DNA of 61,500 nucleotides from a virus. Its lineage: Duplodnaviria; Caudoviricetes. This document shows positions 11,612 through 36,872 of this stretch, in pieces. Every line of letters begins with the position of its first letter. The first letter of the stretch is position 1. A program made the position numbers and the translations under genes. The stretch lies in the IMG/VR virus record IMGVR_UViG_3300037484_001144, positions 1 to 61,500 of that record. One strand, written 5' to 3'. The notes under the pieces were generated by a model that ran no database searches, had not been told where the DNA came from, and was given only the letters and a program-made list of their open reading frames with translations.

Positions 11612-12004
11612 ATGGAAGAGAATGTTTGGGCGATCGTTGAGTTGATGGGGCATAAGGTGGTAGCGGGTAAGGTTTCCAAGAGCGAACTGGTGGGCCCTCC
11701 GAAGCTCCGCGTGGACGTTCCGGCCACAAGTGCCTTCCCCGAGTTCACGCAGCTCTACGGAGATGCGGCTATTTACTGCGTAACGTTCGTGAGTGAAGAC
11801 GTGGCGCGCCGGACGGCTGAAGCAAACAAGACCAACCCCGTCAGTGTGTATGTCCCCGACCTGGTTACGCGCGAACAACTCGAGGAGACGATCAAAAAAT
11901 ATAAAGAGCAGATCACCTTCTTGCGCGCGTTGCCACAGGCTACTGTAGATCGGGATGCGTTCATGCGGGACGATGAAACCGACGAAGACAAGCCTCCTTT
12001 TTAG
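11612..12004 (+). CDS. Conserved phage hypothetical protein
   Basis: AAGGAG RBS; WAIVELMGH...LRVDVP...AIYC. Confidence 0.7.
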   Translation: MEENVWAIVELMGHKVVAGKVSKSELVGPPKLRVDVPATSAFPEFTQLYGDAAIYCVTFVSEDVARRTAEANKTNPVSVYVPDLVTREQLEETIKKYKEQITFLRALPQATVDRDAFMRDDETDEDKPPF

Positions 12005-12309
12005 AGACTTCGGATAGCCAATATATCGCACCTATTTCTGACAGGAGAGAATGAAAAAATCTTCCCGAGAAAAAGAAAACTGCGATCTGGTGGTGGAGCT
12101 GGGTCGGCAATACGATGCCCTCTGCATCCTTGCCGACCCGGACCCGAATGCCATGAACGACCTTGCGTTCCGCTACCGCCTGCTGGGAATGCCCGTGCGG
12201 GCAGGGGAGATTGACAGGAAAGTCAGGTTATTGACGGATCATAGAAAATCTGTTCCATCTGATGTTATAATTACCTCCGTTGATCCTAATCTGGCTAATG
12301 GAGGTTCTC

Positions 12310-12723
12310 ATGAAAAAGGCATTCCAACTCTGTCTGTTTGTACTGTTCGCCGCATTCTGTCTGACTGCCTGTGCGCCGGGGGCTGAGGCGATCGCCACAT
12401 CCCGGGCAGTGCAGATCTCACTCGAACTGAAGCTGGCGATCAACGCCGCGCTCCTGTTCGGGGTAACCTTCGGCTTGCAGTGGTTGTTTGAAACGGTCAA
12501 GATCGACCTGCGCGGCATCGGCGCCGTTCTCGCGGTGGGGGTAGCTGAATTCTTGATCCTGCAATTCCAGGGACTGATCGACGTGGTTCCCGCCCAATAC
12601 GACCTGTACATCACAATCGGACTGAATGTCATCCTGGCAATCCTGACCACGCTGGGCTACATCCGAATCTCTTTCCAACACTGGCGCGCGGCGGCCATGT
12701 TCGAAAAGACTGAAAAAAAATGA
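12310..12723 (+). CDS. Multi-pass membrane protein, holin-like
   Basis: GGAGG RBS; LTAC lipobox-like signal then three TM segments; first gene of a putative lysis block. Confidence 0.55.
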   Translation: MKKAFQLCLFVLFAAFCLTACAPGAEAIATSRAVQISLELKLAINAALLFGVTFGLQWLFETVKIDLRGIGAVLAVGVAEFLILQFQGLIDVVPAQYDLYITIGLNVILAILTTLGYIRISFQHWRAAAMFEKTEKK

Positions 12724-13067
12724 GCCCCGCGAGTGGAGGCAACGTTATGAGCTTCATCGAGATACTCCACGACTATGGCTGGGCTGGGGTGCTCCTGCTG
12801 ATGGTTACGGATAAGATCTTTCCGTTCATAGCCAGTTCGGTCTTCCCGCAGTTACAGAAGGAAAAGCTGGCGAAGATTGAAATGGCAAAGAATGAGCAGG
12901 AGCACCGCTTTGAAATGGACAACCGACAGGTGGAGGCTGTTGAAGGTATCCGGGATGTCTGTCAGAACATCGATAAATTTATGGTTTCGATGGACAGGCG
13001 CATGTCCAATGTTGAGCGTTCCCTGCAGATCAAGCCTGCTGGCAAAAAGAAACCGAGGTCGTCATGA
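12720..13067 (+). CDS. Single-TM coiled-coil protein, holin-like
   Basis: One N-terminal TM, a coiled coil and a basic tail. Confidence 0.5.
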   Translation: MSPASGGNVMSFIEILHDYGWAGVLLLMVTDKIFPFIASSVFPQLQKEKLAKIEMAKNEQEHRFEMDNRQVEAVEGIRDVCQNIDKFMVSMDRRMSNVERSLQIKPAGKKKPRSS

Positions 13068-13435
13068 GTGAGTTCTACCGTCTCAATACCAACGCAGCCA
13101 ATATCCGCTCGGGTCCCAGTGCCATGTACACAGACCTGGGCGACCTGGTAAAGAACGACGTGGTGGAGGTTGCGGAGAAATCTGGCAACTGGTCCAGGAT
13201 CGTGAATGCCCAGCACCTGAACGGTGCTCCCGTTCTGTTGTCTGGCAGCCGCGGCGCAGTCTCTGACTATACCGAGGCGATGTGGGTAACCAATGCCTAT
13301 TTCGTGGCAGTCTCCGGTCTTCCGAACCCTGATCCAGACCCGGACCCTGATCCGGATCCTGACCCCGGTCCTACCATCCACGTCCTGGAAGTGCTGATCG
13401 ACGGGGTTCTTGAATTCAGGAAAGAGTTTTCGTGA
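13064..13435 (+). CDS. SH3-domain protein with (PD)n linker
   Basis: ANIRSGPS...GNWSRI...WVTNAY; PNPDPDPDPDPDPDP. Confidence 0.75.
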   Translation: MSEFYRLNTNAANIRSGPSAMYTDLGDLVKNDVVEVAEKSGNWSRIVNAQHLNGAPVLLSGSRGAVSDYTEAMWVTNAYFVAVSGLPNPDPDPDPDPDPDPGPTIHVLEVLIDGVLEFRKEFS

Positions 13436-14178
13436 CCCACATCCAGGTCTCGCTTTCCAGGAAGTCCAAAGGGGGACTCACTTTCTTTACCCACAATGAA
13501 GACAAGAACACGAATATCTTTGACTGGGCCAACCGGGAATGCGCCGGCGGTGGCGACGGCTGCCCGGCCGTGATGCTGATCAAGGACGAGTCGGACACGT
13601 TCTTCACCAAAGAATGGCAGTTCTTCCTGTGGGCGATCAACCTGGGAATGTCAAAGAGCAACGTCTCTAATCTGATGAGCAAAGGGACGGCCCTGATGAA
13701 TCGCACTGGGGTAGGGGAGGACGGGCGCGCCAACTACATCACAGGCGAGAACCTCTCCGCCGACGATCCCCACCTGGACAAGTTTCGCACCTTTGCGCGC
13801 AACACGCACGCGGCGGTGTACGAGAATGGACTGTGGCGCCTGATCACCATGGACGGGAACAACCCGCCACCTCTAAACCCAGGATACACCACCCAGCCCC
13901 GAATTCTGAACGAAGTAAATCTACTCGCTTACAAGTACACTCCCCAGACTCATCCATACCTATTCCTGGTCTGCAACAACGTGCAGCTCAAGCAGGGCGG
14001 CGTGACCTCGGTCTTTCCCTTTGCGCACGGACTGGTGCGCCCCTGGCTGGACGAAGATCCTTATTCCTTCTTTCCCTTTGTATCTGTTCGCCCTCAATTT
14101 ATTGAACCCCAAAATATAAACAACTGGACTCGCCTGGAGGACGGGCAACCCTTCCCCAGTCCTTACAGACGAGTGTAG
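13432..14178 (+). CDS. Hypothetical protein (candidate lytic enzyme)
   Basis: 248 aa, coupled to the SH3 gene; no catalytic motif recognised. Confidence 0.55.
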   Translation: MTHIQVSLSRKSKGGLTFFTHNEDKNTNIFDWANRECAGGGDGCPAVMLIKDESDTFFTKEWQFFLWAINLGMSKSNVSNLMSKGTALMNRTGVGEDGRANYITGENLSADDPHLDKFRTFARNTHAAVYENGLWRLITMDGNNPPPLNPGYTTQPRILNEVNLLAYKYTPQTHPYLFLVCNNVQLKQGGVTSVFPFAHGLVRPWLDEDPYSFFPFVSVRPQFIEPQNINNWTRLEDGQPFPSPYRRV

Positions 14179-14228
14179 AATGGGCGGGGAGTCTTCCCAC
14201 TCCATGAGTTTCGTTATATAATCATCCC

Positions 14229-14492
14229 ATGCCGAAGCTCTCGATCGACTTCCCCGCCCAGCTCTCCGTCCAGGTGACCGACCTCATGAAGTGGCAACTG
14301 GTAACCATTGGATACCAGACCGGTCACGGCAAGGAGTACGCCGGACCGGTGCGCAACGGGCTGGAGCGGGCGATCCGTGACTACCTGGACAAGCTCTCGC
14401 CGCGTGAGCGCAAGGAGTACGACGAGATCCTGGAGAACGTGAAGATCATGTTTCCCAGCAAGACCGAGAATCAAAAAGCCCCCATCATATGA
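14229..14492 (+). CDS. Small DNA-binding protein (RHH-like)
   Basis: MPKLSIDFP beta-strand followed by helices; TATAAT immediately upstream. Confidence 0.5.
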   Translation: MPKLSIDFPAQLSVQVTDLMKWQLVTIGYQTGHGKEYAGPVRNGLERAIRDYLDKLSPRERKEYDEILENVKIMFPSKTENQKAPII

Positions 14493-14503
14493 TGGGGGCT
14501 TTT
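14474..14503. terminator. Bidirectional intrinsic terminator
   Basis: AAAAGCCCCCATC-ATAT-GATGGGGGCTTTT between convergent operons. Confidence 0.8.
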
Positions 14504-14642
14504 ATTTGTTAGAACGAACCAGGCGGAGGCGGTTTGTAGGGACGCGTCATTGCAAGTAACAAAATTAGTATGACGGGGATTAGAAATAACAAGTCAAATC
14601 TTGGTTCCATTATAAGGTTGCTCTTTCACTTCATCCATCGAA

Positions 14643-14969
14643 TTACTCCGGGTAGTTCTTGACTTCGAACCCATTCCCCTTCAATCCGCGCACCTTGAGT
14701 TCATTCTCCAGCAGGCGGAGTTTCATCTTCTGCTCTTCGATCTTCATGTCCTGCAGAACCAGCTCATTGGAGATCTTCGCCGCGCGCATGTCGGCCACGC
14801 GGGTATTGTTGCGGACCAGTTCCAGCTTGGCTTCCTGGACAACGGTTCGCTCCTGATCGATGTATGGGCGCATCATCCAGGACAGGATCAGGGTCAGGAA
14901 GTTGGCCCATGCCAGCATCTTGGTGCCGGCGCTTCTGCGCTTGCGTTGAATTTGTACTCTGGTAGTCAT
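14643..14969 (-). CDS. Single-TM coiled-coil protein
   Basis: GAGG RBS; ATGA coupling. Confidence 0.6.
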   Translation of the reverse strand: MTTRVQIQRKRRSAGTKMLAWANFLTLILSWMMRPYIDQERTVVQEAKLELVRNNTRVADMRAAKISNELVLQDMKIEEQKMKLRLLENELKVRGLKGNGFEVKNYPE

Positions 14970-15409
14970 AATAACCTCTTTTCTGCCTGTGCGTGATCGT
15001 AGATGATATTGCCGGAATAGGGGACGAATGAGGTAGAAACCTCGAGTCCCTCGTTATGAAAGAACGCTCGCAGCTTGTCCAGATAGCCCTCGGGGTGAGC
15101 AGAGAGAACGATCACGAACTGGTGTTCGTTCTCCCAGTGAGCCTTGAGGAGTACCTCGGGGGAGCGCAACCCCAGCGCGCGGCGGATACTGCCGTTCGTC
15201 CAGGCATCGCCCTTATGGTGGCGGGTCTCGGTCAGGTCGTGAATGGAGACCAGGGCCACGAACCGGGCTGCTTCGGCTTCGCGCCGCAGGAAGACCGGCA
15301 GAGCCTTGTACTCATAGACCCCCAGGGTCTTGTCAAGCGCAACTTCTGCCAGGTCGTGGGTGGTATTGCGCCACAAATTCAGGATGGCGTCATAGGATTG
15401 TCGGGGCAT
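14966..15409 (-). CDS. Hypothetical protein
   Basis: ATG immediately after the recombinase stop; GGAG RBS. Confidence 0.6.
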   Translation of the reverse strand: MPRQSYDAILNLWRNTTHDLAEVALDKTLGVYEYKALPVFLRREAEAARFVALVSIHDLTETRHHKGDAWTNGSIRRALGLRSPEVLLKAHWENEHQFVIVLSAHPEGYLDKLRAFFHNEGLEVSTSFVPYSGNIIYDHAQAEKRLL

Positions 15410-15410
15410 G

Positions 15411-16367
15411 TTATTCTCCAATCTCAAGGGAGGCAACCGCGGCGCGGCGGGTCTTCTCGTCGCGGATGTCATAAATGTTCGAGGTGGTGGCGGGGCTGGC
15501 GTGGCGGGCCAGTTTCTGGACGGTGGACAGGTCCTGCCCCTTATCCAGCAGAGTACAAATGAAAGTCTTCCGGAAGTCGTGCCAGGTGATGTGTTCGGAG
15601 ATAGACAAGCCCACCTGCCGGGCGTCCAGGATCTTCAGGAGGGCATACCCTCCCAGGGATCCGGCTGTGTTGATCTTGTCATTCTTGCGCACCTGACAAA
15701 AGACCCTGCCGGGATCGGAACCGCGGAGCATGAGCCAGGCGCGTAGCCTCTTGTATCCGCCATTGTACAGATACAGGGTGTCTACTCGGTTGCCTTTGCC
15801 GTGGATCACCAGGTCACACGAGTCGCCCGTGTGACCCTTGATGTCTTCCATCCGGAGGGTGGTCAGGTCATCGCGGCGCAGGCCACAGGAGAGCGCCACG
15901 GCGATCAGAGCTGCATCCCGCACACCTGCCGGGGATGTATCCGCGGCGCAGGCGTCCAGGAGTTCCTTGGTCTCTTCGGGGGATAGGTACCTGCCACGCG
16001 GCGGGCGTGCTCCTTTGACATTCCGGACCAGCAACACGCGCGAGGCGCGCTTGATATCGGCCTGTTTCTCGGGGCCGTCTTCCATCTGGTCTTCGGCGTG
16101 ATCGATCAGCTTGCGAGTCCACCAGCGTATGGCGGAGAGTTTCTGGCTGATCGAATCCGGGGCGTAGTTCTGCTTCTGCAGAGCCGCGGCGTATTCCTCT
16201 ACCAGGGTCTTGGTGAGAAGGCGCCCGTCCCGCCAGGTTTCGAATTCCAGCAGGGAGGAGCGGTACTGCCGGCGCGAGTGGCGCGAGATGAGCCGGGGGT
16301 CAGTCTCCACGGCCTGGGTGATCGCTTCAGCCATAGGGGAGGGGCTGGTAAGGGAGTTTTGAGTCAT
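15411..16367 (-). CDS. Tyrosine recombinase (phage integrase/XerCD-like)
   Basis: GLRRDD (R), HGKG (K), HDFRKT (HxxR), LARH and IYD (Y); N-terminal core-binding domain; no IntI-type insert. Confidence 0.9.
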   Translation of the reverse strand: MTQNSLTSPSPMAEAITQAVETDPRLISRHSRRQYRSSLLEFETWRDGRLLTKTLVEEYAAALQKQNYAPDSISQKLSAIRWWTRKLIDHAEDQMEDGPEKQADIKRASRVLLVRNVKGARPPRGRYLSPEETKELLDACAADTSPAGVRDAALIAVALSCGLRRDDLTTLRMEDIKGHTGDSCDLVIHGKGNRVDTLYLYNGGYKRLRAWLMLRGSDPGRVFCQVRKNDKINTAGSLGGYALLKILDARQVGLSISEHITWHDFRKTFICTLLDKGQDLSTVQKLARHASPATTSNIYDIRDEKTRRAAVASLEIGE

Positions 16368-16491
16368 AGATACCTGTTCTTATTATACAGATTTGGGGGA
16401 GTTGTACAATAGTCAATTGTCATGTGCTTGGGGTGATGTTTATCATATTGGCGGGGTTTTTTACTAGCGTCGCGGTGGGCAGAGGGGAGAA

Positions 16492-16809
16492 TCAGGCAGT
16501 GAAATAGTGTACGCCTGGATCACCGTAGTTCTCTCGCATGGACTCGGGGGTCTCGCGCTTGTCAGAGGAGATCCATTTGGCACACTTCGGACAGAGTCCG
16601 TACCCTGTATCGCGGTTGTACCATTGGCGGCCGTGGCATTCTGCACCACAGCAGCAGCACGTCAGGGATACAATCGGGGCGATTCGGACGGGTCCATATA
16701 CTGTGCCCTGTGTCTTCTCGTCCAGTTGCAACAAATAGGGCTTGCCGTCCACAATCCCGCGGTATTCGGCGGGTTGCTTGTTGTACTCTTCTTGGGTCAT
16801 GGTTTTCAT
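16492..16809 (-). CDS. Zn-finger hypothetical protein
   Basis: CCCC...GRQWYNRDTGYGLCPKC. Confidence 0.65.
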   Translation of the reverse strand: MKTMTQEEYNKQPAEYRGIVDGKPYLLQLDEKTQGTVYGPVRIAPIVSLTCCCCGAECHGRQWYNRDTGYGLCPKCAKWISSDKRETPESMRENYGDPGVHYFTA

Positions 16810-16949
16810 TGGTTTGGGTCCCTTATAGCGGGTTCTGGTTTCCTGGTGGGCCAGTTGTCCACTCTGATGGGAGTCTTCTTTGGTTTAGGTAGCTGGACGG
16901 GGATCAGGTCCGGGCGGATAACAATTTTTTTTGGCTTGCCGATTCTCAT
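16806..16949 (-). CDS. Small Pro/Lys-rich protein
   Basis: 47 aa, MRIGKPKK...; GGAGG RBS; overlaps the genes on both sides. Confidence 0.5.
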   Translation of the reverse strand: MRIGKPKKIVIRPDLIPVQLPKPKKTPIRVDNWPTRKPEPAIRDPNQ

Positions 16950-17269
16950 TTACTCACCTCCAGCAGGCGTCCAACTTCCCCGCGTGCGCCGTTTTCATGA
17001 ATGACCACGCGTCCAGATAAGATTACTTTGCAGAGGGTGCCTAAATACTTGCGGGCTTCCTTAGCCGAGAACGTGACATAGACGCCGGTGGTGTTGTCTT
17101 CTGTGGGGGGCTGGTGAGCTGCCAATATCCACGTAGGGCCGTCAAATTCCCACTTCGAAAGAGTCTGGGGCGATGTAACCCGGGCAATATTGCCCTGCCT
17201 ATCTTTTGCAATAAGCAGGGCTTTATACCCTATGCAGTTCTCACGTTCTGCGCGGGTAAGTTTTGGCAT
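16946..17269 (-). CDS. Hypothetical protein
   Basis: Start MPKL after AAGGG; C-terminal GRVVIHENGARG. Confidence 0.6.
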   Translation of the reverse strand: MPKLTRAERENCIGYKALLIAKDRQGNIARVTSPQTLSKWEFDGPTWILAAHQPPTEDNTTGVYVTFSAKEARKYLGTLCKVILSGRVVIHENGARGEVGRLLEVSK

Positions 17270-17273
17270 GGCT

Positions 17274-17792
17274 TTATTTCCCTTCGCTTTCCACCTCAGC
17301 ATACCCGGCCCGCATGGCACTATTCCAGATCGCCGCCTGTTCTTCACGGGTCTGGGCGGGTTCGTCTGTGCGCTTGCCGTTCTCATCGTACCCGGCCGCG
17401 TGGATTGTGACCTTGAGCATTTCGTTGGCTTTATTGGTCGCGCGGATGTACCGAATCGCGCCGCGTTCCCATTCACCGATTGCAGAGGCATGGCGGGATT
17501 CGAAATCCTGAATCTGTTCTTCCTTGCTCCAGCCGCCAGACTGCAGGGTTTCATAATGGACGTGGCCATTTGACTCGTCCAGGGTCATGATTGCAATGAC
17601 GTGGTAGGTAGAGGCCTTGGGGTGGTTCCATTTACCCGTTTTCGGGTTCAGAGTCTGACTGCAGAAGCGTTGGCCGTGACCTTTTTTAGTTTCGATCCAG
17701 TAGCGAATCTGGGTCCGCAGGCGGTACCCATAGGGGTAGTCGTCCACGACATAAGCGGTTTCTTGGGATGTGTGACCTGACAGGGTTTTCAT
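17274..17792 (-). CDS. Conserved phage early protein
   Basis: DDYPYGYRLRTQIRYWIET...QTLNPKTGKWN; CTCACGAAA motif plus AAAGGA RBS. Confidence 0.75.
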   Translation of the reverse strand: MKTLSGHTSQETAYVVDDYPYGYRLRTQIRYWIETKKGHGQRFCSQTLNPKTGKWNHPKASTYHVIAIMTLDESNGHVHYETLQSGGWSKEEQIQDFESRHASAIGEWERGAIRYIRATNKANEMLKVTIHAAGYDENGKRTDEPAQTREEQAAIWNSAMRAGYAEVESEGK

Positions 17793-17879
17793 GATATTTA
17801 TTCCTTTCGTTTCGTGAGTATATAGGGTCTGATGACCTTTCGCCCCGGTCCTACGGGGTAGGGCCGGAGAGGTAGATTA

Positions 17880-18200
17880 TCAGCAATCTGTTACAAGCTG
17901 AGGCAGTAGGCGTGCCCACCAATCGCCGAACGTGCGAGTCTGGGGGTCATAGTGACCGCCGCAGAAGAAGAGACCGGGGTCACCTTTCCACTCAATACCG
18001 CCCCAGTCCCAGACATAGCCGGTATTTTCGCCGCTGTAATAGTGTTCGTCGCACAGTTGCAAGTGGATGCAGCCGGTGAAGGACCCTAATCGAAAAGATC
18101 CGTCCTCATAGAGTGTGACCCTGCCAGACTGTAAAGCCAGCAGGCACGCGCCGAGGATCAGAACCAGCAGAAAGTACAAAAAGAGAGTCTTGGTGTTCAT
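17880..18200 (-). CDS. Membrane-anchored hypothetical protein
   Basis: N-terminal hydrophobic helix; ATGA coupling. Confidence 0.6.
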   Translation of the reverse strand: MNTKTLFLYFLLVLILGACLLALQSGRVTLYEDGSFRLGSFTGCIHLQLCDEHYYSGENTGYVWDWGGIEWKGDPGLFFCGGHYDPQTRTFGDWWARLLPQLVTDC

Positions 18201-18346
18201 AAGACCTTCTTTATTTCGGAGCGCAACCGATCAACTTCGCCCGCCCAGTATGGCAGGCCGTGAAAGTCAACGAGTCCGGCTTCGTGCTCAAGCAGCCAGC
18301 TCACAGCATTTTTAGCATATTGCAGCTTTTCAAAAAGCTCATTCAT
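18197..18346 (-). CDS. Small protein (49 aa)
   Basis: MNELFEKLQYAK...; AAAGGA RBS; ATGA overlap with the next gene. Confidence 0.6.
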   Translation of the reverse strand: MNELFEKLQYAKNAVSWLLEHEAGLVDFHGLPYWAGEVDRLRSEIKKVL

Positions 18347-18370
18347 GGTACTATCCTTTCAATTCGTGAG

Positions 18371-18437
18371 ATAGTGGTCAAGGCTTGTAACTTGACTGCA
18401 CATTTCAGCCCTTGCGGGCTGTACTCTGTGGCACTAT
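18371..18437 (-). ncRNA. Twister ribozyme, type P5 (copy 1)
   Basis: ATAGTG-CC-ACA-GAGTA-CAGCCC-GCAA-GGGCTG-AAA-TGT-GCA-GTCAAG-TTACAAGC-CTTGAC-CACTAT: P5, P2, P1, P4, T1 (TAC/GTA), T2 (GC/GC). Confidence 0.8.
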
Positions 18438-18440
18438 AAA

Positions 18441-18530
18441 TCACTGACAAACATGAAGCAGTAGCCTTCCATCTGTGTAGCACTCTCGCTTCTCGTAATC
18501 GTCATCATTTGTGCACTGTGTTTTATACAT
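18441..18530 (-). CDS. Small ORF (29 aa) between the ribozymes
   Basis: CTCACGAAAGGA RBS; MYKTQCTNDD... Confidence 0.45.
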   Translation of the reverse strand: MYKTQCTNDDDYEKRECYTDGRLLLHVCQ

Positions 18531-18549
18531 GCTAATATCCTTTCGTGAG

Positions 18550-18618
18550 ATAGTGGGCAGGGCTTAGAACCTGCCAGCACATTACAACCCCTTGCAGGGT
18601 TGTCTTCTGTGGCACTAT
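18550..18618 (-). ncRNA. Twister ribozyme, type P5 (copy 2)
   Basis: ATAGTG-CC-ACA-GAAGA-CAACCCT-GCAA-GGGGTTG-TAA-TGT-GCT-GGCAGG-TTCTAAGC-CCTGCC-CACTAT; T1 TCT/AGA covaries with copy 1. Confidence 0.85.
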
Positions 18619-18692
18619 AGGAACATGGTAACAGTGGTATAGAAAGCATAAGCAACGAGAACCAGAAAGCCGATAGTAATTATCTTTTCCAT
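18615..18692 (-). CDS. Small hydrophobic peptide (25 aa)
   Basis: MEKIITIGFLVLVAYAFYTTVTMFL; AAAGGA RBS; stop overlaps the ribozyme P5 stem. Confidence 0.5.
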   Translation of the reverse strand: MEKIITIGFLVLVAYAFYTTVTMFL

Positions 18693-18867
18693 GATATTTA
18701 TTCCTTTCATTTCGTGAGAATGAGAGACTCGCCGTCTCCATCGTGCCTGCTATGATTCCATAGTAGACACTAGCAGGGGCGAATATTGCGTTATTTCTTG
18801 GTGCTATCTCCACCGCCGTAGTCTGGTTCATAGGATGTAAGAGCGTTCATGTTGTTTGTTGTTTGCC

Positions 18868-19029
18868 TTATTTCATGGTGCTGATGAGTTCAACGATTAC
18901 ATACCAAGCCAGTCTCAAATCACCAGAGTGATAAGAGGCATCTTTTGTGTACAAGCCGCTCATTTTTGAACTGTAGTCAAAGACCCGATAAAAGCCATTC
19001 TGAAGTAATTCGATCCGTAGATTTTTCAT
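18868..19029 (-). CDS. Small protein (53 aa)
   Basis: MKNLRIELLQNGFYRVFDY...; CTCACGAAAGG RBS. Confidence 0.55.
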   Translation of the reverse strand: MKNLRIELLQNGFYRVFDYSSKMSGLYTKDASYHSGDLRLAWYVIVELISTMK

Positions 19030-19749
19030 TTCGTTTTACCTTTCGTGAGTGTTTGTAGAATTCTGTCGGCCGTGGATATCCAGCTAAATATCCATTAGCA
19101 ACCCTGCCTTGGTAGGCTATAGCTGATGGGCTCAGCCGACAGTATGCTATAAACTTTCAAAAAACCGGTCACTTGTTAGCTGGTGTATTGGATACCCGGG
19201 GTCTTTTGCTGCCCGCCCTTGCCGTATTTCCGTTACACTCGGTCAGGTTATTTAGGTGACTGGTTGCTATTTAGTTTGTAAGGTACTGTCTAACTGTCTA
19301 TAGTTTACTCCCATTGTACAACCATACATAGTGACAAATGTCATATATTCAACGTGCCGAAAGTCATAATACAAATGTTCTAATAATGGGTGGCTGGATC
19401 ACTGCCAGGCAGTAGTGTACCGATACTCTACACCGCCTTTCTTATTTCAGAAAAAATTTTTTGTAGAAAATTTTCTAATGGCTGATAATGCCCAGTGTGT
19501 GGCCACTATGCCACATATACGCATGATATTAGACTATATATTTACATTAGTAGCTATAACGTACATTGTCACTACTAATATATAGCCTATAAATAGAAAA
19601 TTTATTCTAAGAAAATTTGTTCTAAAAACGAATTTTTCTCTTGTTTTCTCTGTGATATATGCACACCCTGAGTCGCGCAATTTCCGGTTTTTCGATCCCC
19701 TCTATTCCTCCCCATGGATAATAACATTCGCCTCTCCCCTTCTGAAACC

Positions 19750-19778
19750 TTGACAGCCCGACTCTAAGGTTGTACAAT
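19750..19778 (+). promoter_or_regulatory. Sigma70 promoter for the methyltransferase operon
   Basis: TTGACA-17-TACAAT; the -10 overlaps GGTTGTACAA. Confidence 0.75.
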
Positions 19779-19805
19779 CTTGCTTATCTCTTTGGCTAGG
19801 AGCGA

Positions 19806-21182
19806 ATGTTGAAAACTTCAGGATCATTCTTTACAGGCGGAGCTCTATTTGATGTCGGCGCAGAGGTTGCTGGCTATAATACTATCTGGGGAATAGAAAA
19901 AGACGACAAGATCGCAAGTGTGGCAAGGTTGAATGGTTTCCCTGTCAGGACCGCAGATGTTCTGACCCTTGACCTGACTACACTGGAACGCCCCGATCAC
20001 TTTCATGCTTCTCCTCCGTGCCCCAACTTCTCGGTAGCAAATAACAAGAAAGGTGAAACAGAGCTGGATATTGCTATGGCGGATGCGGTCTGCCGCGCTC
20101 TGGCGTATTTCTGTTCAGACACCTTCACGTTAGAGAACGTGGTGGGATATCGCAAATCGGAGAGCTTCAAGCGGATCACAAAGAAACTGACAGACCTGGG
20201 GTACTGGTGGGATGCCACGAATTTGAACTCTGCAGACTTCGGCGTTCCCCAGACCCGCAACCGTTTATGGATCCGTGCCAGTCGCGGTCTCCTGCGTGGA
20301 TATCCACATCCTGAGCCGTGGAAAGGCTGGTACCAGGCAATTGAGGACCTGATCCCATCTCTCCCTGATTCGGAATTTGCACCCTGGCAGCTTGAGAGAC
20401 TGCCGGAGGAATACAGAAACTTTGTGATCGGGAACGGCACCTACTCGTCTGCTGTGGATGCAGACCAGCCCATCCAGGCAATCACGGCAAACAGTAACCA
20501 GGCGCACATCCGAGCCGTAGTCTCGGATGTGCAAGGAGAGAACTCCAAGGGATACAAGGAACCCGAGGAACCGATCTCAACGATCACGGGAAGCCACACT
20601 GCCGGGAAGTATCGTGCGCTCATTGTCGGCGACCAGAAAGGGCAAATGGCACACAGTGAACGCCGGGCGTTCACTGTGAGGGCGCAGGGAAAGGGCGGAA
20701 CATCGCCCAGAGCCTTTGTTGTTCCCGGTGGGAATGCCAGCTCCTTCAGTGTGCGGGAACACAACGAGCAAGCTCGTTGTGTGGAAAGTATCAACCGGAC
20801 GGGAAATAACCCAAGAGCATTTGTCTTTGACAACGGGAATACCAATCGGAACGGAGAATTTCTGCGCGGCGAAGATGAACCTGTCCACACGGTGATAGTC
20901 CGGCAGGATCAAACTCCTCTCCGAGCGTTCGTCCTGGACGGGCAATCCAATGAGGGTGAGAGAATTACGGTTCGCAATGAAGAAGAACCGATTTTCACAC
21001 AGTCGGCAAGCGCGAGCAGGCAGCCTGCTCGCGCTTGCATGGGCGGGCGGGTGGTCAAGCTTGACATCCGCTGTCTGGGTCGCTTTCAGACGGTCCCGGA
21101 CTGGTACAAGGGCCTGACTGTGAAGATCAATGGGAATGGCGTGCCGTGCCTGATGGCACAGAAGGTACTAGAGACATTATGA
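19806..21182 (+). CDS. DNA (cytosine-5)-methyltransferase with repeated variable region
   Basis: FTGG (I), SPPC (IV), ENV (VI), QTRNR (VIII), RFQ..PD and GNGV (IX/X); about 7 RAFV-bounded repeats. Confidence 0.9.
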   Translation: MLKTSGSFFTGGALFDVGAEVAGYNTIWGIEKDDKIASVARLNGFPVRTADVLTLDLTTLERPDHFHASPPCPNFSVANNKKGETELDIAMADAVCRALAYFCSDTFTLENVVGYRKSESFKRITKKLTDLGYWWDATNLNSADFGVPQTRNRLWIRASRGLLRGYPHPEPWKGWYQAIEDLIPSLPDSEFAPWQLERLPEEYRNFVIGNGTYSSAVDADQPIQAITANSNQAHIRAVVSDVQGENSKGYKEPEEPISTITGSHTAGKYRALIVGDQKGQMAHSERRAFTVRAQGKGGTSPRAFVVPGGNASSFSVREHNEQARCVESINRTGNNPRAFVFDNGNTNRNGEFLRGEDEPVHTVIVRQDQTPLRAFVLDGQSNEGERITVRNEEEPIFTQSASASRQPARACMGGRVVKLDIRCLGRFQTVPDWYKGLTVKINGNGVPCLMAQKVLETL

Positions 21183-23254
21183 AACACGCAATCGATCAAT
21201 GGGAAGGTTGTTATCCTTCGAACTGGAAGGGGCTCATCATCCAGGAAGCAATGGCACATCCGGCGAAATTCTCGAACAAACTGATCCGGCGTATCTATGA
21301 ACACCTGCAGGAAGAAGGCTGGGTAAAGCCTGGTGATCGTGTGATCGATCCTTTCGGCGGCGTTGCTCTGGGTGCCCTAGACGCCATGCGGCTGGGATTG
21401 AACTGGTACGGGATGGAATTGGAAGCAAAGTTCCACGAACTGGGATCGGCGCAATATCTCTGTAATGGTATCCAGCCTGACGAATGGAAGCGATGGTATT
21501 CTCGTCCCAAGATGCTTGCCTTCTTCCGTGAGCATCGCCTGCTCTGCCCGCCCTGTGAAGCTGCCTGGAACGACATCTCCAATCGCAAGATACCGTCCAG
21601 GGACGCCCATACCTTTCGGGGGAACATCCCGCTCTGGGAGAATAAGTTCAGGGATATGCCCAACTTCGGCACTGCCCATCTTCTGTATGGGGATAGTCGG
21701 CACCTTTTGGAATTGCTGAACGATTACGTGCAGGTATCTGTGTCTTCGCCTCCCTATGCTGATGGGTGCTCACACACTGGCGGGGACGATCCGCATCCTG
21801 AAAAAGCTCGCGGTGGACAACTTTACGGAGTTGGAATTGCGCTTGGGGTTTCCTCTCCTCCCTATGCCGAAACGGATCTCAACTACAAACGGAACGGGTT
21901 GGATTATCACCGGCCATACATGGATGGGCAGAGCGGAGTCGACAACTATGGAGCCACTCCTGGTCAACTGGGAGCACTAAAAGCGAAAGGTTTTGAGGCT
22001 GCAATCTCCTCACCTCCATTCCTGCAATCGGAAGGCGGAACACCGGAACTGAAACCGGGCGGATCGATCGACGCGGCTCTGTACAAGCGCCACGCTGCCG
22101 GCAATAAGTCTGCCGATGGGTATGGCTCCAGTGATGGGCAGTTGTCGTCCATGAAGGATGGGTCATTCGAAGCGGCTGTGAGCAGTCCGCCCTACAACCC
22201 GCCGATGAGTCAGGACCACAACGGCAAGCGCGGTGGGAAACGCGGTACGACTCCCAGTGAACCGGGCGCGTTTGTGAAGTATGGTAACTCCGATGGACAA
22301 TTGGAAGGCATGGACATGGATGGGTTCATGGCGGCGATTTCATCGCCGCCATACTCCGCCATGCAGGTCGAGAAGAATTCCACCAGCATTGACCGCACCA
22401 AGCAGTATGAGATCTACCGAAAATCGGGTGGCGGTCAGTCATTCGAGCAGTTCTGCCGCACCCAGGAATTGCACTCCCAGGGGTACGGTCATTCAGATGG
22501 ACAACTCTCAGACCTTCCTGCAGGTGACTTCAACGCCGCAGTCTCTTCCCCTCCGTTTCAGAAAGGCAGTGAAGGAGTCTTGCGCGCCGATAAGTTCAAA
22601 GAGCCGGAAGCCTTTGCGCGCGTGCAGATGCTCACAGGACACGGTGCCAGTTTTGAAGCCAAAATGCGTGCCATGAAGAAGGATAACGAGAGAGCGGAGT
22701 ATGGACAAACAGAGGGTCAACTCGGGAACATGACTGGCGACTTCGATGTCTCCGTTTCCTCTCCCCCGTATGAGGATAGTGATCAGAATTATAAAGCTGG
22801 TTGGGAAAGGTTCCATAAAACCCGAGAACCACTTCATGCGAACGACATTCAGAGAGAAGCCGAGTATGGATCATCTCAGGGGCAACTTTCAGTTAGTGAC
22901 GACTTCTGGCTGGCGGCCCGCGCAATCGTCGAGCAGGTCTATCTTGCGCTTGCGCCGGGAGGTCATGCAGTTTGGGTGGTCAAAGATTATGTGAAAGCAA
23001 AGAAAATCGTCCCGTTCTGTGATCAGTGGAGGCAACTCTGCGAAGCCGTGGGGTTTGTCACCCTGCACGAACACCACGCCATGCTGGTCCATCATAAAGG
23101 CACCCAGCACACCCTCGATGGCGGCACAGTGGAGAAGAAGACTGAGAGCAAGTCTTTCTTCCGGCGCCTGGCAGAGAAGAACGGAAGCCCCCGAATCGAC
23201 TGGGAGACTGTTTATTGTATGGAGAAACCATGTACGACGATTACGAACCCTTGA
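21179..23254 (+). CDS. Amino (N4-C/N6-A type) DNA methyltransferase-like protein with seven SPPY/F modules
   Basis: HPAKF, DPFGG, GMELE, GDSR, then 7 x SSPP(Y/F)...(YG)...GQL; LAPGG..VWVVKD. Confidence 0.8.
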   Translation: MKHAIDQWEGCYPSNWKGLIIQEAMAHPAKFSNKLIRRIYEHLQEEGWVKPGDRVIDPFGGVALGALDAMRLGLNWYGMELEAKFHELGSAQYLCNGIQPDEWKRWYSRPKMLAFFREHRLLCPPCEAAWNDISNRKIPSRDAHTFRGNIPLWENKFRDMPNFGTAHLLYGDSRHLLELLNDYVQVSVSSPPYADGCSHTGGDDPHPEKARGGQLYGVGIALGVSSPPYAETDLNYKRNGLDYHRPYMDGQSGVDNYGATPGQLGALKAKGFEAAISSPPFLQSEGGTPELKPGGSIDAALYKRHAAGNKSADGYGSSDGQLSSMKDGSFEAAVSSPPYNPPMSQDHNGKRGGKRGTTPSEPGAFVKYGNSDGQLEGMDMDGFMAAISSPPYSAMQVEKNSTSIDRTKQYEIYRKSGGGQSFEQFCRTQELHSQGYGHSDGQLSDLPAGDFNAAVSSPPFQKGSEGVLRADKFKEPEAFARVQMLTGHGASFEAKMRAMKKDNERAEYGQTEGQLGNMTGDFDVSVSSPPYEDSDQNYKAGWERFHKTREPLHANDIQREAEYGSSQGQLSVSDDFWLAARAIVEQVYLALAPGGHAVWVVKDYVKAKKIVPFCDQWRQLCEAVGFVTLHEHHAMLVHHKGTQHTLDGGTVEKKTESKSFFRRLAEKNGSPRIDWETVYCMEKPCTTITNP

Positions 23255-23373
23255 AACCACCCGGCCTTTTGGAGAAGATCACGATATTCCTGATGGTGAT
23301 CGTCTCTGCCATATTCTGGAGACGCAAGCCAGGGAAGTAACATTTGTCATGTATAATTAGGGCGGAGGCACGC

Positions 23374-23889
23374 ATGAAAGAGTACCTGGCTAGGGTCGCG
23401 GAAGCAGTCCTGCATTTGGACGTGGGGGAACTGGATAACGCTGTGAAGATTCTCGAGGAAGTACGCGCAAGCGGAAATATGGTCTGGATCGTGGGTAACG
23501 GCGGGTCGGCGGCCACTGCCGAGCACTTCGCCAACGACCTGACCAAAATGGCGCACGTGCGGGCGCTCGCCGTGCACGCCATGACCCCAACCGTCCTGGC
23601 GTATGGGAATGATGAAGGCTGGGAAACGTCCTACTTGAGCATCCTGAACGTCATGCGTAAGCCAGGGGATGCGCTGGTAGCGATCTCCTGTTCCGGGAAA
23701 TCTCCCAACGTGATATTCCCGGCTATGAAATTCCACCACGACCGCTTGATCGTCCTGACGGGGAATGACTTCGAAAGCCAGCTTGCCGGCATGGATGCCG
23801 ACGCCAAGATATTCGTGATCGACGAGGATATCCGGGTGCAGGAGGATGCGCACCTGGCGGTCTGTCACGCCATTGCAGGAGCGTTGTGA
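23374..23889 (+). CDS. gmhA: Phosphoheptose isomerase (SIS domain)
   Basis: GNGGSAATAEH, GND, ISCSGKSPNV, LTG, QEDAHL..CH. Confidence 0.85.
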   Translation: MKEYLARVAEAVLHLDVGELDNAVKILEEVRASGNMVWIVGNGGSAATAEHFANDLTKMAHVRALAVHAMTPTVLAYGNDEGWETSYLSILNVMRKPGDALVAISCSGKSPNVIFPAMKFHHDRLIVLTGNDFESQLAGMDADAKIFVIDEDIRVQEDAHLAVCHAIAGAL

Positions 23890-23983
23890 TGAAAAAGAGT
23901 AAGAAATGGAAGGGCAGTCAATGGAAAGCCCATCGGAGTCAGAACTACCGAAGAATTCGTCCCTGGTGGCCGCGGAGGAAGCG

Positions 23984-24316
23984 ATGAAAGTCTACATTGC
24001 CTGCCCGTACACCCTGGGGGACGTGGCGATAAACGTCCGGAACGCCCTGTTTGTGCAGGACTTCCTGGAGATCCACGGCTTCATGGTCTACAATCCCCTA
24101 CTGTCTCACTTCCAGCACCTGGTCTTCCCTCACCGGGAGGTGGAATACTGGTACGAGAAGGATATCAAGTGGTTGAAGGAATGTGACTGCGTTCTGCAGC
24201 TTCCAGGGGAAAGCCGGGGAGCTGATCGGGAAGTACAAATTGCTATGGATCTCAATTTGCCTGTCTACCATTCCGCCGAAGAAGTTCTGGAGGTGAACCG
24301 ATGGGAAAGAAGCTGA
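23984..24316 (+). CDS. DUF1937/nucleoside 2-deoxyribosyltransferase-like protein
   Basis: KVYIACPYT...NP...CD....PGESRGADRE. Confidence 0.7.
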   Translation: MKVYIACPYTLGDVAINVRNALFVQDFLEIHGFMVYNPLLSHFQHLVFPHREVEYWYEKDIKWLKECDCVLQLPGESRGADREVQIAMDLNLPVYHSAEEVLEVNRWERS

Positions 24317-24358
24317 TCGTCCTGATGGGGCTCCTGCTGGTGCTGTGTAACTACCTGA

Positions 24359-25183
24359 GTGTCCTGCACTGGTTCTACTTGGGAAAACTTGCCGTTCGAA
24401 GGATCAAAAATTGATGTGGCTGAGCGGTGCGCAGCTCTGCGCTTCAATTGTTCCTCCTGCAGGCGTCATTTCCGGTCTGCCGAGCGCGTCCCAGTCTGCC
24501 CGGGTTGCGGAGCCGACCTCCAATGTGGAAAGTGGGCAGTACCCGGGTACCGCTACTGTGAAGACCACGGCGGTCCGGCGCCCAGCCGGAACTTCTACGG
24601 GAAAGGCAGGGGTATCGTGAGCGGCGAGAATTCCCAGTTTGCCCTGACACGCCTGGCATCCAGGTACGTCGAGATGCAGAAGGATGGGCGCATCCTTTCC
24701 AATCGGGCTGGTATTGCCGTGCTGGATGACCGGATCGTGGAGTTGCTGGAACGAATGGGAAATCAGCAGTTCCCGGACCAGCTTGCCGCCCTGCGGGACC
24801 TGTGGGAAGAATATAAGACTGTGGAGGGTACTGTTGAGCAAATCAAAGTCAAAAGGAAACTCCAGGCGGCATTCGACGCCGTTTATCATGACTACATGGC
24901 TTTCCACCAGATCGAAGAATCTCTGGAACTTAGGAGCAAAATGGTGGAAAGGGAGGCAAAGATCGCGAAAGACCTGCACGCGATCCTGACCGCCGAGGAT
25001 GCTTACAAGCTTGTGGCAAAGGTCCAGGCGGCAATTATCACTTCCATCCAGCAGGAGCCGGAGATCCCGGACCACGTAAAGGCACATTTCTTGAAGAGGA
25101 TCGAATATGAGTTTACTCGAATCATTGGAGAGGGATCTGGTGAAAGGTCTGGGGGAAGCGTCGGAGAAATTATCGACGCCTGA
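24359..25183 (+). CDS. Putative terminase small subunit
   Basis: Cys-rich N-terminus ending CEDHGG, then a helical region; directly upstream of TerL; start uncertain. Confidence 0.5.
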   Translation: MSCTGSTWENLPFEGSKIDVAERCAALRFNCSSCRRHFRSAERVPVCPGCGADLQCGKWAVPGYRYCEDHGGPAPSRNFYGKGRGIVSGENSQFALTRLASRYVEMQKDGRILSNRAGIAVLDDRIVELLERMGNQQFPDQLAALRDLWEEYKTVEGTVEQIKVKRKLQAAFDAVYHDYMAFHQIEESLELRSKMVEREAKIAKDLHAILTAEDAYKLVAKVQAAIITSIQQEPEIPDHVKAHFLKRIEYEFTRIIGEGSGERSGGSVGEIIDA

Positions 25184-27713
25184 CCCGGTAGACTGGATCG
25201 AAAAGAACTTCTATATCCCCGAGACCAAAAACGATCCTATTTTGCGCGGCAGGATTGAGCTGGAACAATACCACCGGGATGTCATCCGGGAAGCTCTTTC
25301 CAAGGACGAGAAGGGGTTTTATAAGTATTCGATCATTATCTGGTCAGACATCAAGAAATCGATCAAATCGACGATCGCCGCAGCGGTCAACTTATTTATC
25401 ATGGAATATACCGAATGGGGCGAACAATATATCGTGGCGAACGATCTCAAACAGGCGGATTCCAGGGTGTCGATGTACCTGCGGAGATGTCTGGAAATCA
25501 ACCCAAAATTCAAGAAGAAATATGGGGTCAAGGGATATCGCACCACCCACCCCGCCAATGGCTCTTATGCCGAAGCCATCCCGATTGACCCCAGCGGGGA
25601 AGCCGGGTCGAATGCGGACATGATTACATTCTGTCTGGACGAGCAAACGGAAGTTTTGACAAAGGACGGCTGGAAGGGTTGGGAAACTCTTTCCATGAAT
25701 GATCTAATTGCCACGCGTTCCCGTGATGGTGTTTTTGAATGGCAGGAACCTGATGGTATATATTGTTCACGCTACACCGGGGAAATGTATAAGATCACAA
25801 ATCGTTCTCTGGACGCCCTGGTCACACCTGACCATAGAATGTATGGAAAGTTCATCGGCGGACGAGGTATTGCCCCGGGCATGAATCGGTGCTGGAAACA
25901 TGAATTTGTTGATAACTTGGAAAGCAGGTTCCTGGTAGCTTCAAGTGCTGCAAAAACCTTGGCTTACTACCCTGTACTGACCAGTTTATGGCCGGATGGC
26001 GACGCTGCTCCTTTTATTATTCCTCCAACATATAGCCAACAGGGAAAGGGAAATAATCTTATTTTCCCTATCAATCAAACTAAAAAAGTTGTCTCTGCGG
26101 AACTCTTTGCCGAATTTATGGGATGGTATTTGTCTGAGGGCTGTGTCATAAAGAAACGCGGTAGGCTGGAAGGGATTTCCATAGGGCAATCGAAGACGAA
26201 AAACCCGGAGAACTACAATCGTATTATTGAGCTTTTGAAGGAAATGGATCTCTCGCCGCGAACCTGGAGTGACGGGATGAGCGTTATCGTATATCACTCC
26301 AAACTGGCCGAGATGTTGTTGAAATACGGCCTTTCTGGTGATAAGTATGTTCCGACGGAAATCAAGGAGTTACCGCTTCATTACTTGATGATTTTTTTGA
26401 ATGCCTATATCAAGGGAGATGGTCATCGGAATGGAAAATATGGATGGACGATCGGATCAAAGTCGAGAGAAATGAGAGATGATCTGGTCGAGATTGCGCA
26501 GAAATGTGGTTTCTCGGTTTCATCCTACGAAACTCAGGATTTCCGGTGGATCGGCAACCCTAAGATGTACTGTTTATATCTTCGGTCAAAAGATTCATTC
26601 AAGCGTTGCAAGGTGGAAAGAAAGCAATGGAGCACGGTTTCCTATGACGGAGTAGTGTTCTGCCCCTCTACACCTAATGGAATCATCTATGTTAGGCGAA
26701 ATGGGACTTATTATTGGACTGGCAACTCGGAACTGTGGGGAGCGAACCAGCAGGCCCAGCAAAGGATGTGGGGAGAAATGACCCTCTCCCCCACTAAGGC
26801 AGGAAAAAGTTTCCGCTGGGTAGAAAGTTACGCGGGGTACACAGAAGAAAGCCTCTTACTATATTCACTATACGCACTGGGTACTCAGCAGGGAAAATTG
26901 CTCTGGCCAGACAAACTTTACCCCGTGACGGGTGGAGCGCCAACCCCTTTAGAGTTGTACGTCAACGAAGAAGCGAAGATGTTGTGTTTGTGGAATACGC
27001 AACCAAGATGTAAATGGCAGACCCCCGAGTATTATCGGTCTGAAGAGAAGATTCTGCTTCCCAGTGACTTCCGCAGGATGCACCGCAACCAGTGGGTTTC
27101 CTCCACGGAGACATTCCTTCCGATGGAATGGTTTGACGCGTGCAGACGGTCTAACGAGTCCTGGCCAGAGGTTGATAAAAAACATAACTCATTTATTATA
27201 GCACTGGATGCGGCCACTACGAATGATAACTTCGGTTTGTTCCTGGGATGCAGACATCCCAAGTGTCCAAATGACGTTCTGACGATCCTGGCGCAGAAGT
27301 GGGTACCTGTCAATGGGAAGATCGACTTCCAGGGCACGGAAGAGAAACCTGGTCCAGAACTGGTGTTGAGAAGACTTGTCAAGGAGTATAACGTGATTGA
27401 GGTGGCTTATGATCCCACCCAGCTCTACGATATGTGTAATCGGCTGTACAAGGAAGGTCTGGCGTGGTTCCGACCGTTCAATCAGGGACAAGCTCGTCTA
27501 ATCGCAGACAGCCAACTGCGAGACCTGGTGCGAGAGAAACACTTCTGGCACCGCGGCGAGTCTGATCTGCGGGAGCATTTCAATAATGCCAACGCCCAGA
27601 TCGACTCCGAGGAACACAAGATCAGGATTGTGAAGCGTGTGGAAAATCTAAAGATTGATCTGTGTGTGGCGGCGTCCATGTGTTGCCACGAATTGCTGAG
27701 ATTGAACCTGTAA
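25107..27713 (+). CDS. Terminase large subunit, intein-containing
   Basis: Deviant Walker A (IKKSIKST); ITF|SELWG Walker B split by an intein; nuclease ALDAA...D, YDP and KIDL motifs. Confidence 0.85.
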   Translation: MSLLESLERDLVKGLGEASEKLSTPDPVDWIEKNFYIPETKNDPILRGRIELEQYHRDVIREALSKDEKGFYKYSIIIWSDIKKSIKSTIAAAVNLFIMEYTEWGEQYIVANDLKQADSRVSMYLRRCLEINPKFKKKYGVKGYRTTHPANGSYAEAIPIDPSGEAGSNADMITFCLDEQTEVLTKDGWKGWETLSMNDLIATRSRDGVFEWQEPDGIYCSRYTGEMYKITNRSLDALVTPDHRMYGKFIGGRGIAPGMNRCWKHEFVDNLESRFLVASSAAKTLAYYPVLTSLWPDGDAAPFIIPPTYSQQGKGNNLIFPINQTKKVVSAELFAEFMGWYLSEGCVIKKRGRLEGISIGQSKTKNPENYNRIIELLKEMDLSPRTWSDGMSVIVYHSKLAEMLLKYGLSGDKYVPTEIKELPLHYLMIFLNAYIKGDGHRNGKYGWTIGSKSREMRDDLVEIAQKCGFSVSSYETQDFRWIGNPKMYCLYLRSKDSFKRCKVERKQWSTVSYDGVVFCPSTPNGIIYVRRNGTYYWTGNSELWGANQQAQQRMWGEMTLSPTKAGKSFRWVESYAGYTEESLLLYSLYALGTQQGKLLWPDKLYPVTGGAPTPLELYVNEEAKMLCLWNTQPRCKWQTPEYYRSEEKILLPSDFRRMHRNQWVSSTETFLPMEWFDACRRSNESWPEVDKKHNSFIIALDAATTNDNFGLFLGCRHPKCPNDVLTILAQKWVPVNGKIDFQGTEEKPGPELVLRRLVKEYNVIEVAYDPTQLYDMCNRLYKEGLAWFRPFNQGQARLIADSQLRDLVREKHFWHRGESDLREHFNNANAQIDSEEHKIRIVKRVENLKIDLCVAASMCCHELLRLNL
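25632..26726 (+). mobile_element. Intein with LAGLIDADG homing endonuclease (365 aa) in TerL
   Basis: CLDEQTEVLT, VTPDH, FMGWYLSEG, FLNAYIKGDG, WTGN|S. Confidence 0.92.
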
Positions 27714-36808: not shown

Positions 36809-36857
36809 AACCGCTTCCCACGTGGACACAAGTCCGCGGGAAGCGGTTTTTTGTTTT
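36809..36857 (+). terminator. Terminator-like hairpin in the leader of the glycosylation operon
   Basis: aaccgcttccc...gggaagcggtt followed by ttttgtttt, ending about 15 bp before ATG 36873. Confidence 0.65.
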
Positions 36858-36872
36858 CATCGGAGGAAGCAT

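Follow-up and report, generated by a model that had tools for sequence, protein, structure and literature searches.

Roth et al. 2014 and Weinberg 2015 are the primary discovery papers, and RiboJ is in use as a ribozyme insulator. In the early genes of phage T7, RNase III sites between cistrons give rise to defined mRNAs ending in hairpins. Twisters and hammerheads have been described near phage genes and near each other, and a part in the processing of polycistrons was suggested for them, their function being treated as unresolved (PMC6765202, PMC4604425, PMC8782182, PMC5408937). In 2011, clustered hammerheads were reported which flank single prophage genes and cut polycistronic constructs of ~2 kb in vitro, and one phage hammerhead was placed 13 nt before a start codon (PMC3088659). 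An engineered arrangement is pRAP, in which a twister before each ribosome site leads to monocistronic mRNAs with an identical 5′ UTR for each cistron; a stem-loop had to be added 5′ of the cut for stability of the upstream cistron (PMC9872166). Ribozyme processing of phage polycistrons is already published as a general idea.

The window analyzed here, i.e., the whole stretch of DNA with its length of 61.5 kb, is the complete genome of an uncultured temperate siphovirus-like phage; it comprises a whole IMG/VR virus record and has direct terminal repeats. Two elements on its minus strand, in the following copy A and copy B, are very probably type-P5 twister ribozymes. They share with this family (RF02684, clan CL00120) P1, P2 and P4, the pseudoknots T1 and T2 and the conserved L1/L4 core, and, following the definition in PMC5408937, also the N-A scissile dinucleotide beside P1, a looped P1 and termini in P5. 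In the elements studied here and their relatives, however, T1 is A/U-rich (GUA/UAC, AGA/UCU, AUG/CAU, UGG/CCA) compared to G/C in the Rfam consensus of RF02684, P2 has 3 pairs instead of 4, P1 is short, and the P5 strands, which directly adjoin a stop codon and a ribosome site, are AGUG/CACU in every copy. The first three of these features have the consequence that most members score at or below the RF02684 cut-off. We conclude that the copies form a recognizable twister-P5 subfamily with A/U-rich T1, invariant P5 strands and stop-codon/ribosome-site coupling.

As at the T7 RNase III sites, an early-type phage polycistron would be cut between cistrons, but the T7 sites depend on a host enzyme, whereas twisters are autonomous. 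The prophage hammerhead clusters (Perreault et al. 2011, PMC3088659) correspond to the locus in that several ribozymes occur in one co-oriented small-gene phage block, near an integrase, and flank single genes of varying identity. In contrast to those clusters, the ribozyme class is a different one, and a translation-initiation motif that occurs repeatedly is joined to the ribozyme. Besides the twisters, no hammerhead or other Rfam ribozyme was detected in the operon (window positions 17780-19320 and L004). With pRAP, the locus shares the order of stem-loop, predicted twister cut, ribosome site and ORF, repeated along the transcript (PMC9872166), and a related phage fragment (G001) carries an identical leader on three cistrons, like the uniform 5′ UTR of pRAP. 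The engineers of pRAP came to this layout independently. Unlike pRAP, the system is a natural one, the protective 3′ hairpin would be the ribozyme’s own P1, and its function is one we infer. A targeted literature search, which had primary discovery papers and supplements outside its scope, found neither a report of twisters joined to a recurring leader with a ribosome site nor an argument on the hairpins created by the P5 permutation.

The annotated genes of the window include an integrase (15411-16367, minus strand), two DNA methylases, a terminase large subunit, a tape-measure protein and tail proteins. These genes therefore identify a temperate tailed phage. Both ribozymes are located within a run of small minus-strand ORFs, which extends from ~19040 to 16490 upstream of the integrase and is divergent from a rightward unit opening with a methylase gene at 19806. 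At its opening (19806-23254, plus strand), this rightward unit encodes two methylases, one a C5-cytosine DNA methylase and the other of N6/N4 type. Among the late genes, a 938-aa protein (44333-47149, plus strand) has glycosyltransferase matches. The terminase large subunit contains a LAGLIDADG_3 domain, and a Polysacc_synt_2/epimerase-type enzyme contains Intein_splicing and LAGLIDADG_2 domains; these appear to be inteins or homing-endonuclease inserts in the two genes (25107-27713 and 36822-38912, both plus strand). A tRNA scan of the window found none.

Upstream of copy A, a small hydrophobic ORF is found at 18615-18692 (minus strand), which has 25 aa when read from the ATG after a Shine-Dalgarno sequence and 31 aa if translation starts at 18710, where its first ATG is located; no family match was obtained for it. 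A 29-aa Cys-containing candidate ORF (18441-18530, minus strand), also without family match and absent from the related phage fragment, lies between the two ribozymes. Downstream of copy B follows a 49-aa gene (18197-18346, minus strand). This is a real, conserved gene, as 41/49 residues (84%) are identical in its L004 homolog (E 2e-30). The subsequent 106-aa gene (17880-18200, minus strand) shares its first 4 bases (18197-18200) with the end of the 49-aa gene, and its product is 78% identical to a homolog in the related phage fragment. Since both genes are conserved in that fragment, the coding strand is fixed as minus. Judged by eye, the 106-aa protein has a hydrophobic N-terminal stretch. 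Searching with this protein yielded one related viral contig and a 19-residue match in a bacterial MAG, which is too short for naming a host.

Promoter-like and terminator-like sites are no more common in this region than in shuffled sequences, no promoter being above chance, and the “early” timing assigned to the small-gene operon is a guess. Among sequencing runs, a single one was listed for this sequence, consisting of DNA contigs with a small share of its words, and no RNA run. The sequence CACTAT... after P5 was considered as a promoter of a single-subunit RNA polymerase; this candidate was dropped, as no RNA polymerase was found among ten large ORFs scanned against PHROGs. By eye, a palindrome TTGTACAA was seen upstream of both the small-gene operon (~19300-19345) and the integrase gene (16385-16425) on the minus strand, as well as at the matching places in the sister phage (L004 ~3040-3070 and 395-425, minus strand). 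This palindrome might act as an operator or belong to a promoter.

Copy A (18551-18617, minus strand) is 67 nt long. It consists of P5 (TAGTG/CACTA; 18613-18617/18551-18555), P2 (18608-18610/18579-18581), P1 with a GCAA loop (CAACCCT/GGGGTTG; 18596-18602/18585-18591) and P4 (GGCAGG/CCTGCC; 18570-18575/18556-18561), to which the pseudoknots T1 (AGA/TCT; 18603-18605/18566-18568) and T2 (18577-18578/18562-18563) are added. The cut is predicted at 18584/18583, between U and A. Copy B (18372-18436, minus strand; 65 nt) has P5 at 18432-18436/18372-18376, P1, again with a GCAA loop, at 18416-18421/18406-18411 (CAGCCC/GGGCTG), P4 at 18391-18396/18377-18382 (GTCAAG/CTTGAC) and T1 at 18422-18424/18387-18389 (GTA/TAC). 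Here, the predicted cut (18405/18404) falls between A and A instead of U and A; the base 5′ of the scissile bond is less conserved than the adenine 3′ of the cut, as stated in PMC5408937. The outer helix TAGTG/CACTA occurs in both copies and has 6 bp if the flanking A-U is counted. Further, both copies have a P4 hairpin with an 8-nt loop and AAGC at the loop end, and the string NAAUGUGC is common to them. Over ungapped blocks, a repeat search found 82-87% identity. For copy A, minimum-energy folding reproduces the twister secondary structure (z = −2.3); for copy B, it yields P1, P2 and P4 without P5 (z = −3.1). All elements described in the earlier note, i.e., two diverged copies, compensatory differences in P1, P4 and T1, and the core motifs, are present in the sequence.

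In local searches of 401 bases, the Rfam model RF02684 matched copy B with 37.6 bits (E 2e-6, aligned part 18379-18430) and copy A with 37.3 bits (E 2.3e-6, aligned part 18558-18611). The gathering threshold of this family is 37.6 bits, so that copy B just meets it and copy A falls 0.3 bit short. When 1.5 kb were searched, the E-values of the two copies were 7.6e-6 and 8.9e-6. Both alignments are full-length (model positions 1-58), and the upper-case consensus core positions (CAGA, AAUG, GC, AAGCC) are all matched in both copies. Within the twister clan, type P5 is the best-scoring model for these elements. The expected Rfam match to twister-P5 was thus obtained locally, at the cut-off, but not in a default run of the whole window at the gathering threshold, which gave 0 matches. 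A 14-kb run (12000-26000) listed copy A alone and nothing else credible, and a search of the phage’s own genome gave one match, 0/1 being over the cut-off. The consensus UAA after P1 comes to lie on U18584-A18583 in copy A and on A18405-A18404 in copy B, which therefore puts the cuts where they had first been proposed; as predictions, both positions are confirmed by the alignment to the Rfam consensus.

A covariance model of our own (R1), comprising the stems P5, P2, P1 and P4, was built from the two window copies and three related-phage copies. In the window, it scored 82.9 bits for copy A and 80.7 bits for copy B, besides one noise match of 13.5 bits. A metagenome pattern scan in which only ACAGA, AATGTGC, AAGCC and CACTA were fixed returned 16 loci, 9/16 of which contain R1 matches. 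The remaining 7/16 (L038, L039, L041, L045-L048) are unrelated sequence without model match and were rejected. For the test against RF02684, L036 (same contig as L004) and L042 (ribozyme identical to that of L033) were left out; all seven metagenome loci tested matched with 28.5-43.0 bits, and two of them (L040 and L043, 43.0 bits) exceed the cut-off.

The combined alignment contains 13 copies, 10 of them distinct, with two copies from the window and 11 from the related phage fragment and metagenome contigs; T1 and T2 were added by hand. Across the 10 distinct sequences, pairing is found in 98.7% of 235 cells, compared to 27-38% when the 3′ partners are slid by 1-3 columns, and in P1, P2 and P4 100% of the cells are paired. 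Double changes occur in 13/24 pairs, distributed over P1 (5/5), P4 (5/6) and T1 (3/3). Among 500 shuffles, none reached the observed pairing or covariation score. T1, which is 100% paired with its four complementary triplet pairs, represents the cleanest test because it is outside the R1 model and was left unconstrained by the search pattern. P2, T2 and P5 are invariant and therefore without covariation support, and the search pattern had fixed one or both strands of each. T2 (GC with GC) is complementary in its invariant form, a pairing read from sequence. The pattern did not constrain the 5′ strand of P5, and AGUG is present there in 10/10 distinct copies. Covariation is stronger evidence of identity than the Rfam score. 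Accordingly, the assignment to twister-P5 made in the earlier note holds, based on matches at the family cut-off, a full set of core nucleotides and independent covariation in P1, P4 and T1.

The position of the ribozymes relative to the genes is precise. In copy A, the TAG of P5 is the stop codon of the upstream small hydrophobic ORF, and copy B starts 4 nt past the TGA of the 29-aa ORF. The next ATG, behind an AAGGA Shine-Dalgarno sequence, follows 20 nt (copy A) and 25 nt (copy B) past the ribozyme. In the window, two ribozymes flank the 29-aa ORF; in G001, three copies flank two ORFs. An ATG with preceding Shine-Dalgarno sequence is located 17-25 nt downstream of the ribozyme in 13/13 copies. 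On the upstream side, 12/13 copies have a stop codon that terminates a longer open frame and whose last base falls in the interval from 7 nt ahead of the ribozyme to 3 nt inside it; the 13th copy is located 63 nt from the end of its contig. Taken together, the 13 copies represent approximately seven genomic contexts (window, G001, L034, the L033/L042/L037 group, L040/L043, L044 and L035). Thus, the placement from stop codon to ribosome site, which had been pointed out for the two window copies, is real and recurs in all 13 copies and about seven genomic contexts.

Directly 3′ of each window ribozyme, a translation-initiation motif (CTCACGAA..AAGGA) was found on the minus strand, which holds the Shine-Dalgarno sequence of the 29-aa ORF after ribozyme A (18536-18550) and that of the 49-aa gene after ribozyme B (18357-18371). 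Other copies of this motif are at 17805-17819, 18705-18719 and 19036-19050 (minus strand), so that the repeat search counts five copies ahead of five operon cistrons. Two of the leaders (17786-17821 and 18686-18721) agree at 92% of 36 nt, start codon included. The five motif copies are repeated, standardized translation-initiation regions.

IMG/VR was scanned with a ribozyme pattern for relatives of the locus. Five loci were found, of which only L004 contains twisters; L002, L003, L005 and L006 had no covariance-model match and were rejected. The related phage fragment G001 is 20.8 kb long (34% complete) and has three ribozyme copies within ~750 nt, each followed by an identical 20-nt leader up to the ATG and then by a different ORF. 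GenBank phages gave no match to 17800-19800 or 18340-18640. Relatives of a neighboring 172-aa protein were examined at 24 IMG/VR loci; a twister is present in 0/24, hence the gene of this protein is not linked to the ribozymes, and the upstream regions have no common motif. Two long metagenome contigs (L034 and L043) likewise contain arrays of co-oriented small ORFs. PHROGs has no family for 10 neighbor proteins of L034, L043 and L044. On the 12-kb contig L043, which has a single twister copy, an int-alpA RNA (RF02996, 40.6 bits, above cut-off) was noticed at 2370-2439 (minus strand); its presence fits a mobile-element or prophage setting.

Other intercistronic regions of the operon contain structured modules as well, which we designate E0, E1 and E4 (all minus strand). 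E0 (window 19050-19154; L004 2756-2866) is located in the operon leader. It forms a three-way junction whose closing stem of 10 bp (CTGTCGGC.G/CGGCCGACAG) is conserved, while 6 pairs of the inner hairpins differ in a compensatory way (z = −4.2 and −6.9). E1 (window 18716-18776; L004 1535-1598) consists of two adjacent hairpins (z = −3.2 in both phages), the first with an extended tip and compensatory differences between the phages, the second with an invariant GAGAC/GTCTC stem; the shared ribosome-site motif comes next, and the neighboring genes differ between the two phages. E4 (window 17822-17884; L004 946-1005) is a rod-like hairpin of ~60 nt, which reaches from within the TGATAA stop codons of the 106-aa gene to a point just short of the shared ribosome-site motif. 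Its lower stem and internal loops are conserved; its top stem of 10-11 bp has a wholly different sequence in the sister phage, where it nevertheless pairs (z = −3.5 and −4.0). All three modules end with the same leader motif and fold much better than shuffled sequences, and in G001 their architecture is retained with compensatory changes.

No Rfam family was detected for E0, E1 or E4 at E ≤ 10 (L004; window 17780-19320), and pattern scans of IMG/VR for them returned the L004 contig only, plus the unrelated L049 and L050. Based on two sequences each, the modules may be RNase III-type sites or unknown ribozymes. E4, rather than the twisters, resembles an RNase III-type hairpin; it may represent an RNase III-type site or a processing element of an unknown sort. 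The ribozymes pistol, hatchet and twister-sister were found by guilt-by-association logic. By the same logic, one could propose that the operon is a modular array, in which nearly all cistrons have in front of them a structured RNA module fused to the same translation-initiation motif, the modules being interchangeable and of at least four types, with the twisters as one type, and that at least one of E0, E1 and E4 belongs to a new self-cleaving ribozyme class; we regard this proposal as quite unlikely.

For the two twisters, we consider it probable that both are functional type-P5 ribozymes which cut the leftward polycistronic RNA into single-gene messages with standardized 5′ UTRs. Given twister identity, processing or insulation is, on balance, the most likely function. 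Sequence, fold, covariation and placement are what the analysis shows, while cleavage in vivo, the end chemistry and a physiological benefit are what we infer. The ribozymes would be transcribed within the leftward (minus-strand) polycistronic RNA of the small genes, and each copy would fold co-transcriptionally and cut itself directly after the P1 hairpin, at 18584/18583 and 18405/18404. Twister cleavage is an internal transesterification at the N-A step beside P1, leaving a 2′,3′-cyclic phosphate and a 5′-OH (PMC8782182 and PMC5408937). If this established mechanism applies here, the upstream product would end with the GNRA-capped P1 hairpin and a 2′,3′-cyclic phosphate. The downstream product would begin with 5′-OH-AAUGUGC, followed by the P4 hairpin, the 3′ strand of P5 and the ribosome site, i.e., a fixed leader of ~50 nt. 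It is due to the P5 permutation that the cut falls between P1 and the rest of the ribozyme and the upstream product would receive a hairpin on its 3′ end. Both cuts together would release a 179-nt RNA (18583..18405) carrying the 29-aa ORF. In this way, single-gene messages would gain context-insulated 5′ UTRs and hairpin-protected ends, and stability and translation of adjacent cistrons would be uncoupled.

Alternatively, the ribozymes might cut in the service of regulation instead of simple processing. Cleavage or folding would then be conditional, being controlled, for instance, by Mg2+, by a factor or by the termination of ribosomes within P5, and would thereby tune expression or decay of particular small genes. 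The UAG of P5 doubles as stop codon of the upstream ORF in 4/10 distinct copies, so that a terminating ribosome would cover P5, P2 and T1; in the other copies, however, the stop is 4-7 nt upstream of P5, thus the overlap is not conserved. A conditional activity was also proposed for phage hammerheads (PMC3088659), and P5 of copy B is marginal, being absent from the minimum-energy fold. On the other hand, P1 and P4 are short capped hairpins, and no aptamer-like insertion is present. Overall, conditional activity appears unlikely.

Another explanation would be that the copies are mainly repeats at the DNA level, either relics or recombination points for small-gene cassettes, with an RNA activity that is incidental or lost. 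The three G001 copies are near identical (differences at 3 columns) and flank unrelated ORFs, the gene order around the modules differs between the window phage and the related phage, and the translation-initiation motif is included in the repeat unit. Nevertheless, P1, P4 and the long-range T1 remain paired in diverged copies by changes on both sides, which indicates selection on the RNA fold and not on DNA identity, and both window copies retain every catalytic-core position of Rfam intact. A role mainly as DNA repeats is improbable.

The tandem pair could also excise the 179-nt piece with the 29-aa ORF, whose 5′-OH and cyclic-phosphate ends would then be joined into a small circular RNA. 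In other systems, ribozyme pairs 186-399 nt apart are tied to small circular RNAs (PMC13725137), and in the excised RNA the 3′ half of A could join the 5′ half of B by way of P5 and P2. The resulting hybrid T1 would be defective, however, with one Watson-Crick pair, one wobble and one mismatch, as the T1 strands match within each copy and not across copies. In addition, 8/13 copies occur singly on their contigs, a length of 179 nt is not divisible by three, and for the tandem prophage hammerheads circular or spliced products were sought and none was seen (PMC3088659). Circularization is thus very improbable. A chance resemblance, in which ordinary intergenic hairpins happen to score near the twister model, can hardly be believed: the scores are at or just under the Rfam cut-off, the default run had no match and RF02684 gives sub-cut-off matches in 7/14 control genomes, but two adjacent full-length matches have E ~2e-6 each, relatives score above the cut-off, and the covariation, unmatched by any shuffle, includes a pseudoknot.

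The preferred reading, processing of the polycistron into single-gene messages, bears on a wider question, since the roles of twisters and hammerheads in bacteria and phages are still called speculative (PMC6765202 and PMC5408937). With its A/U-rich T1, the subfamily scores at or under the Rfam threshold and is, therefore, missed by routine annotation. The locus is an unusually clean natural case, a complete phage genome with ribozymes exactly between stop codon and ribosome site, and in the sister phage this design recurs around other genes. It suggests a testable reason for the P5 permutation, namely that cleavage would place a hairpin on both new ends and give each cistron a uniform leader.
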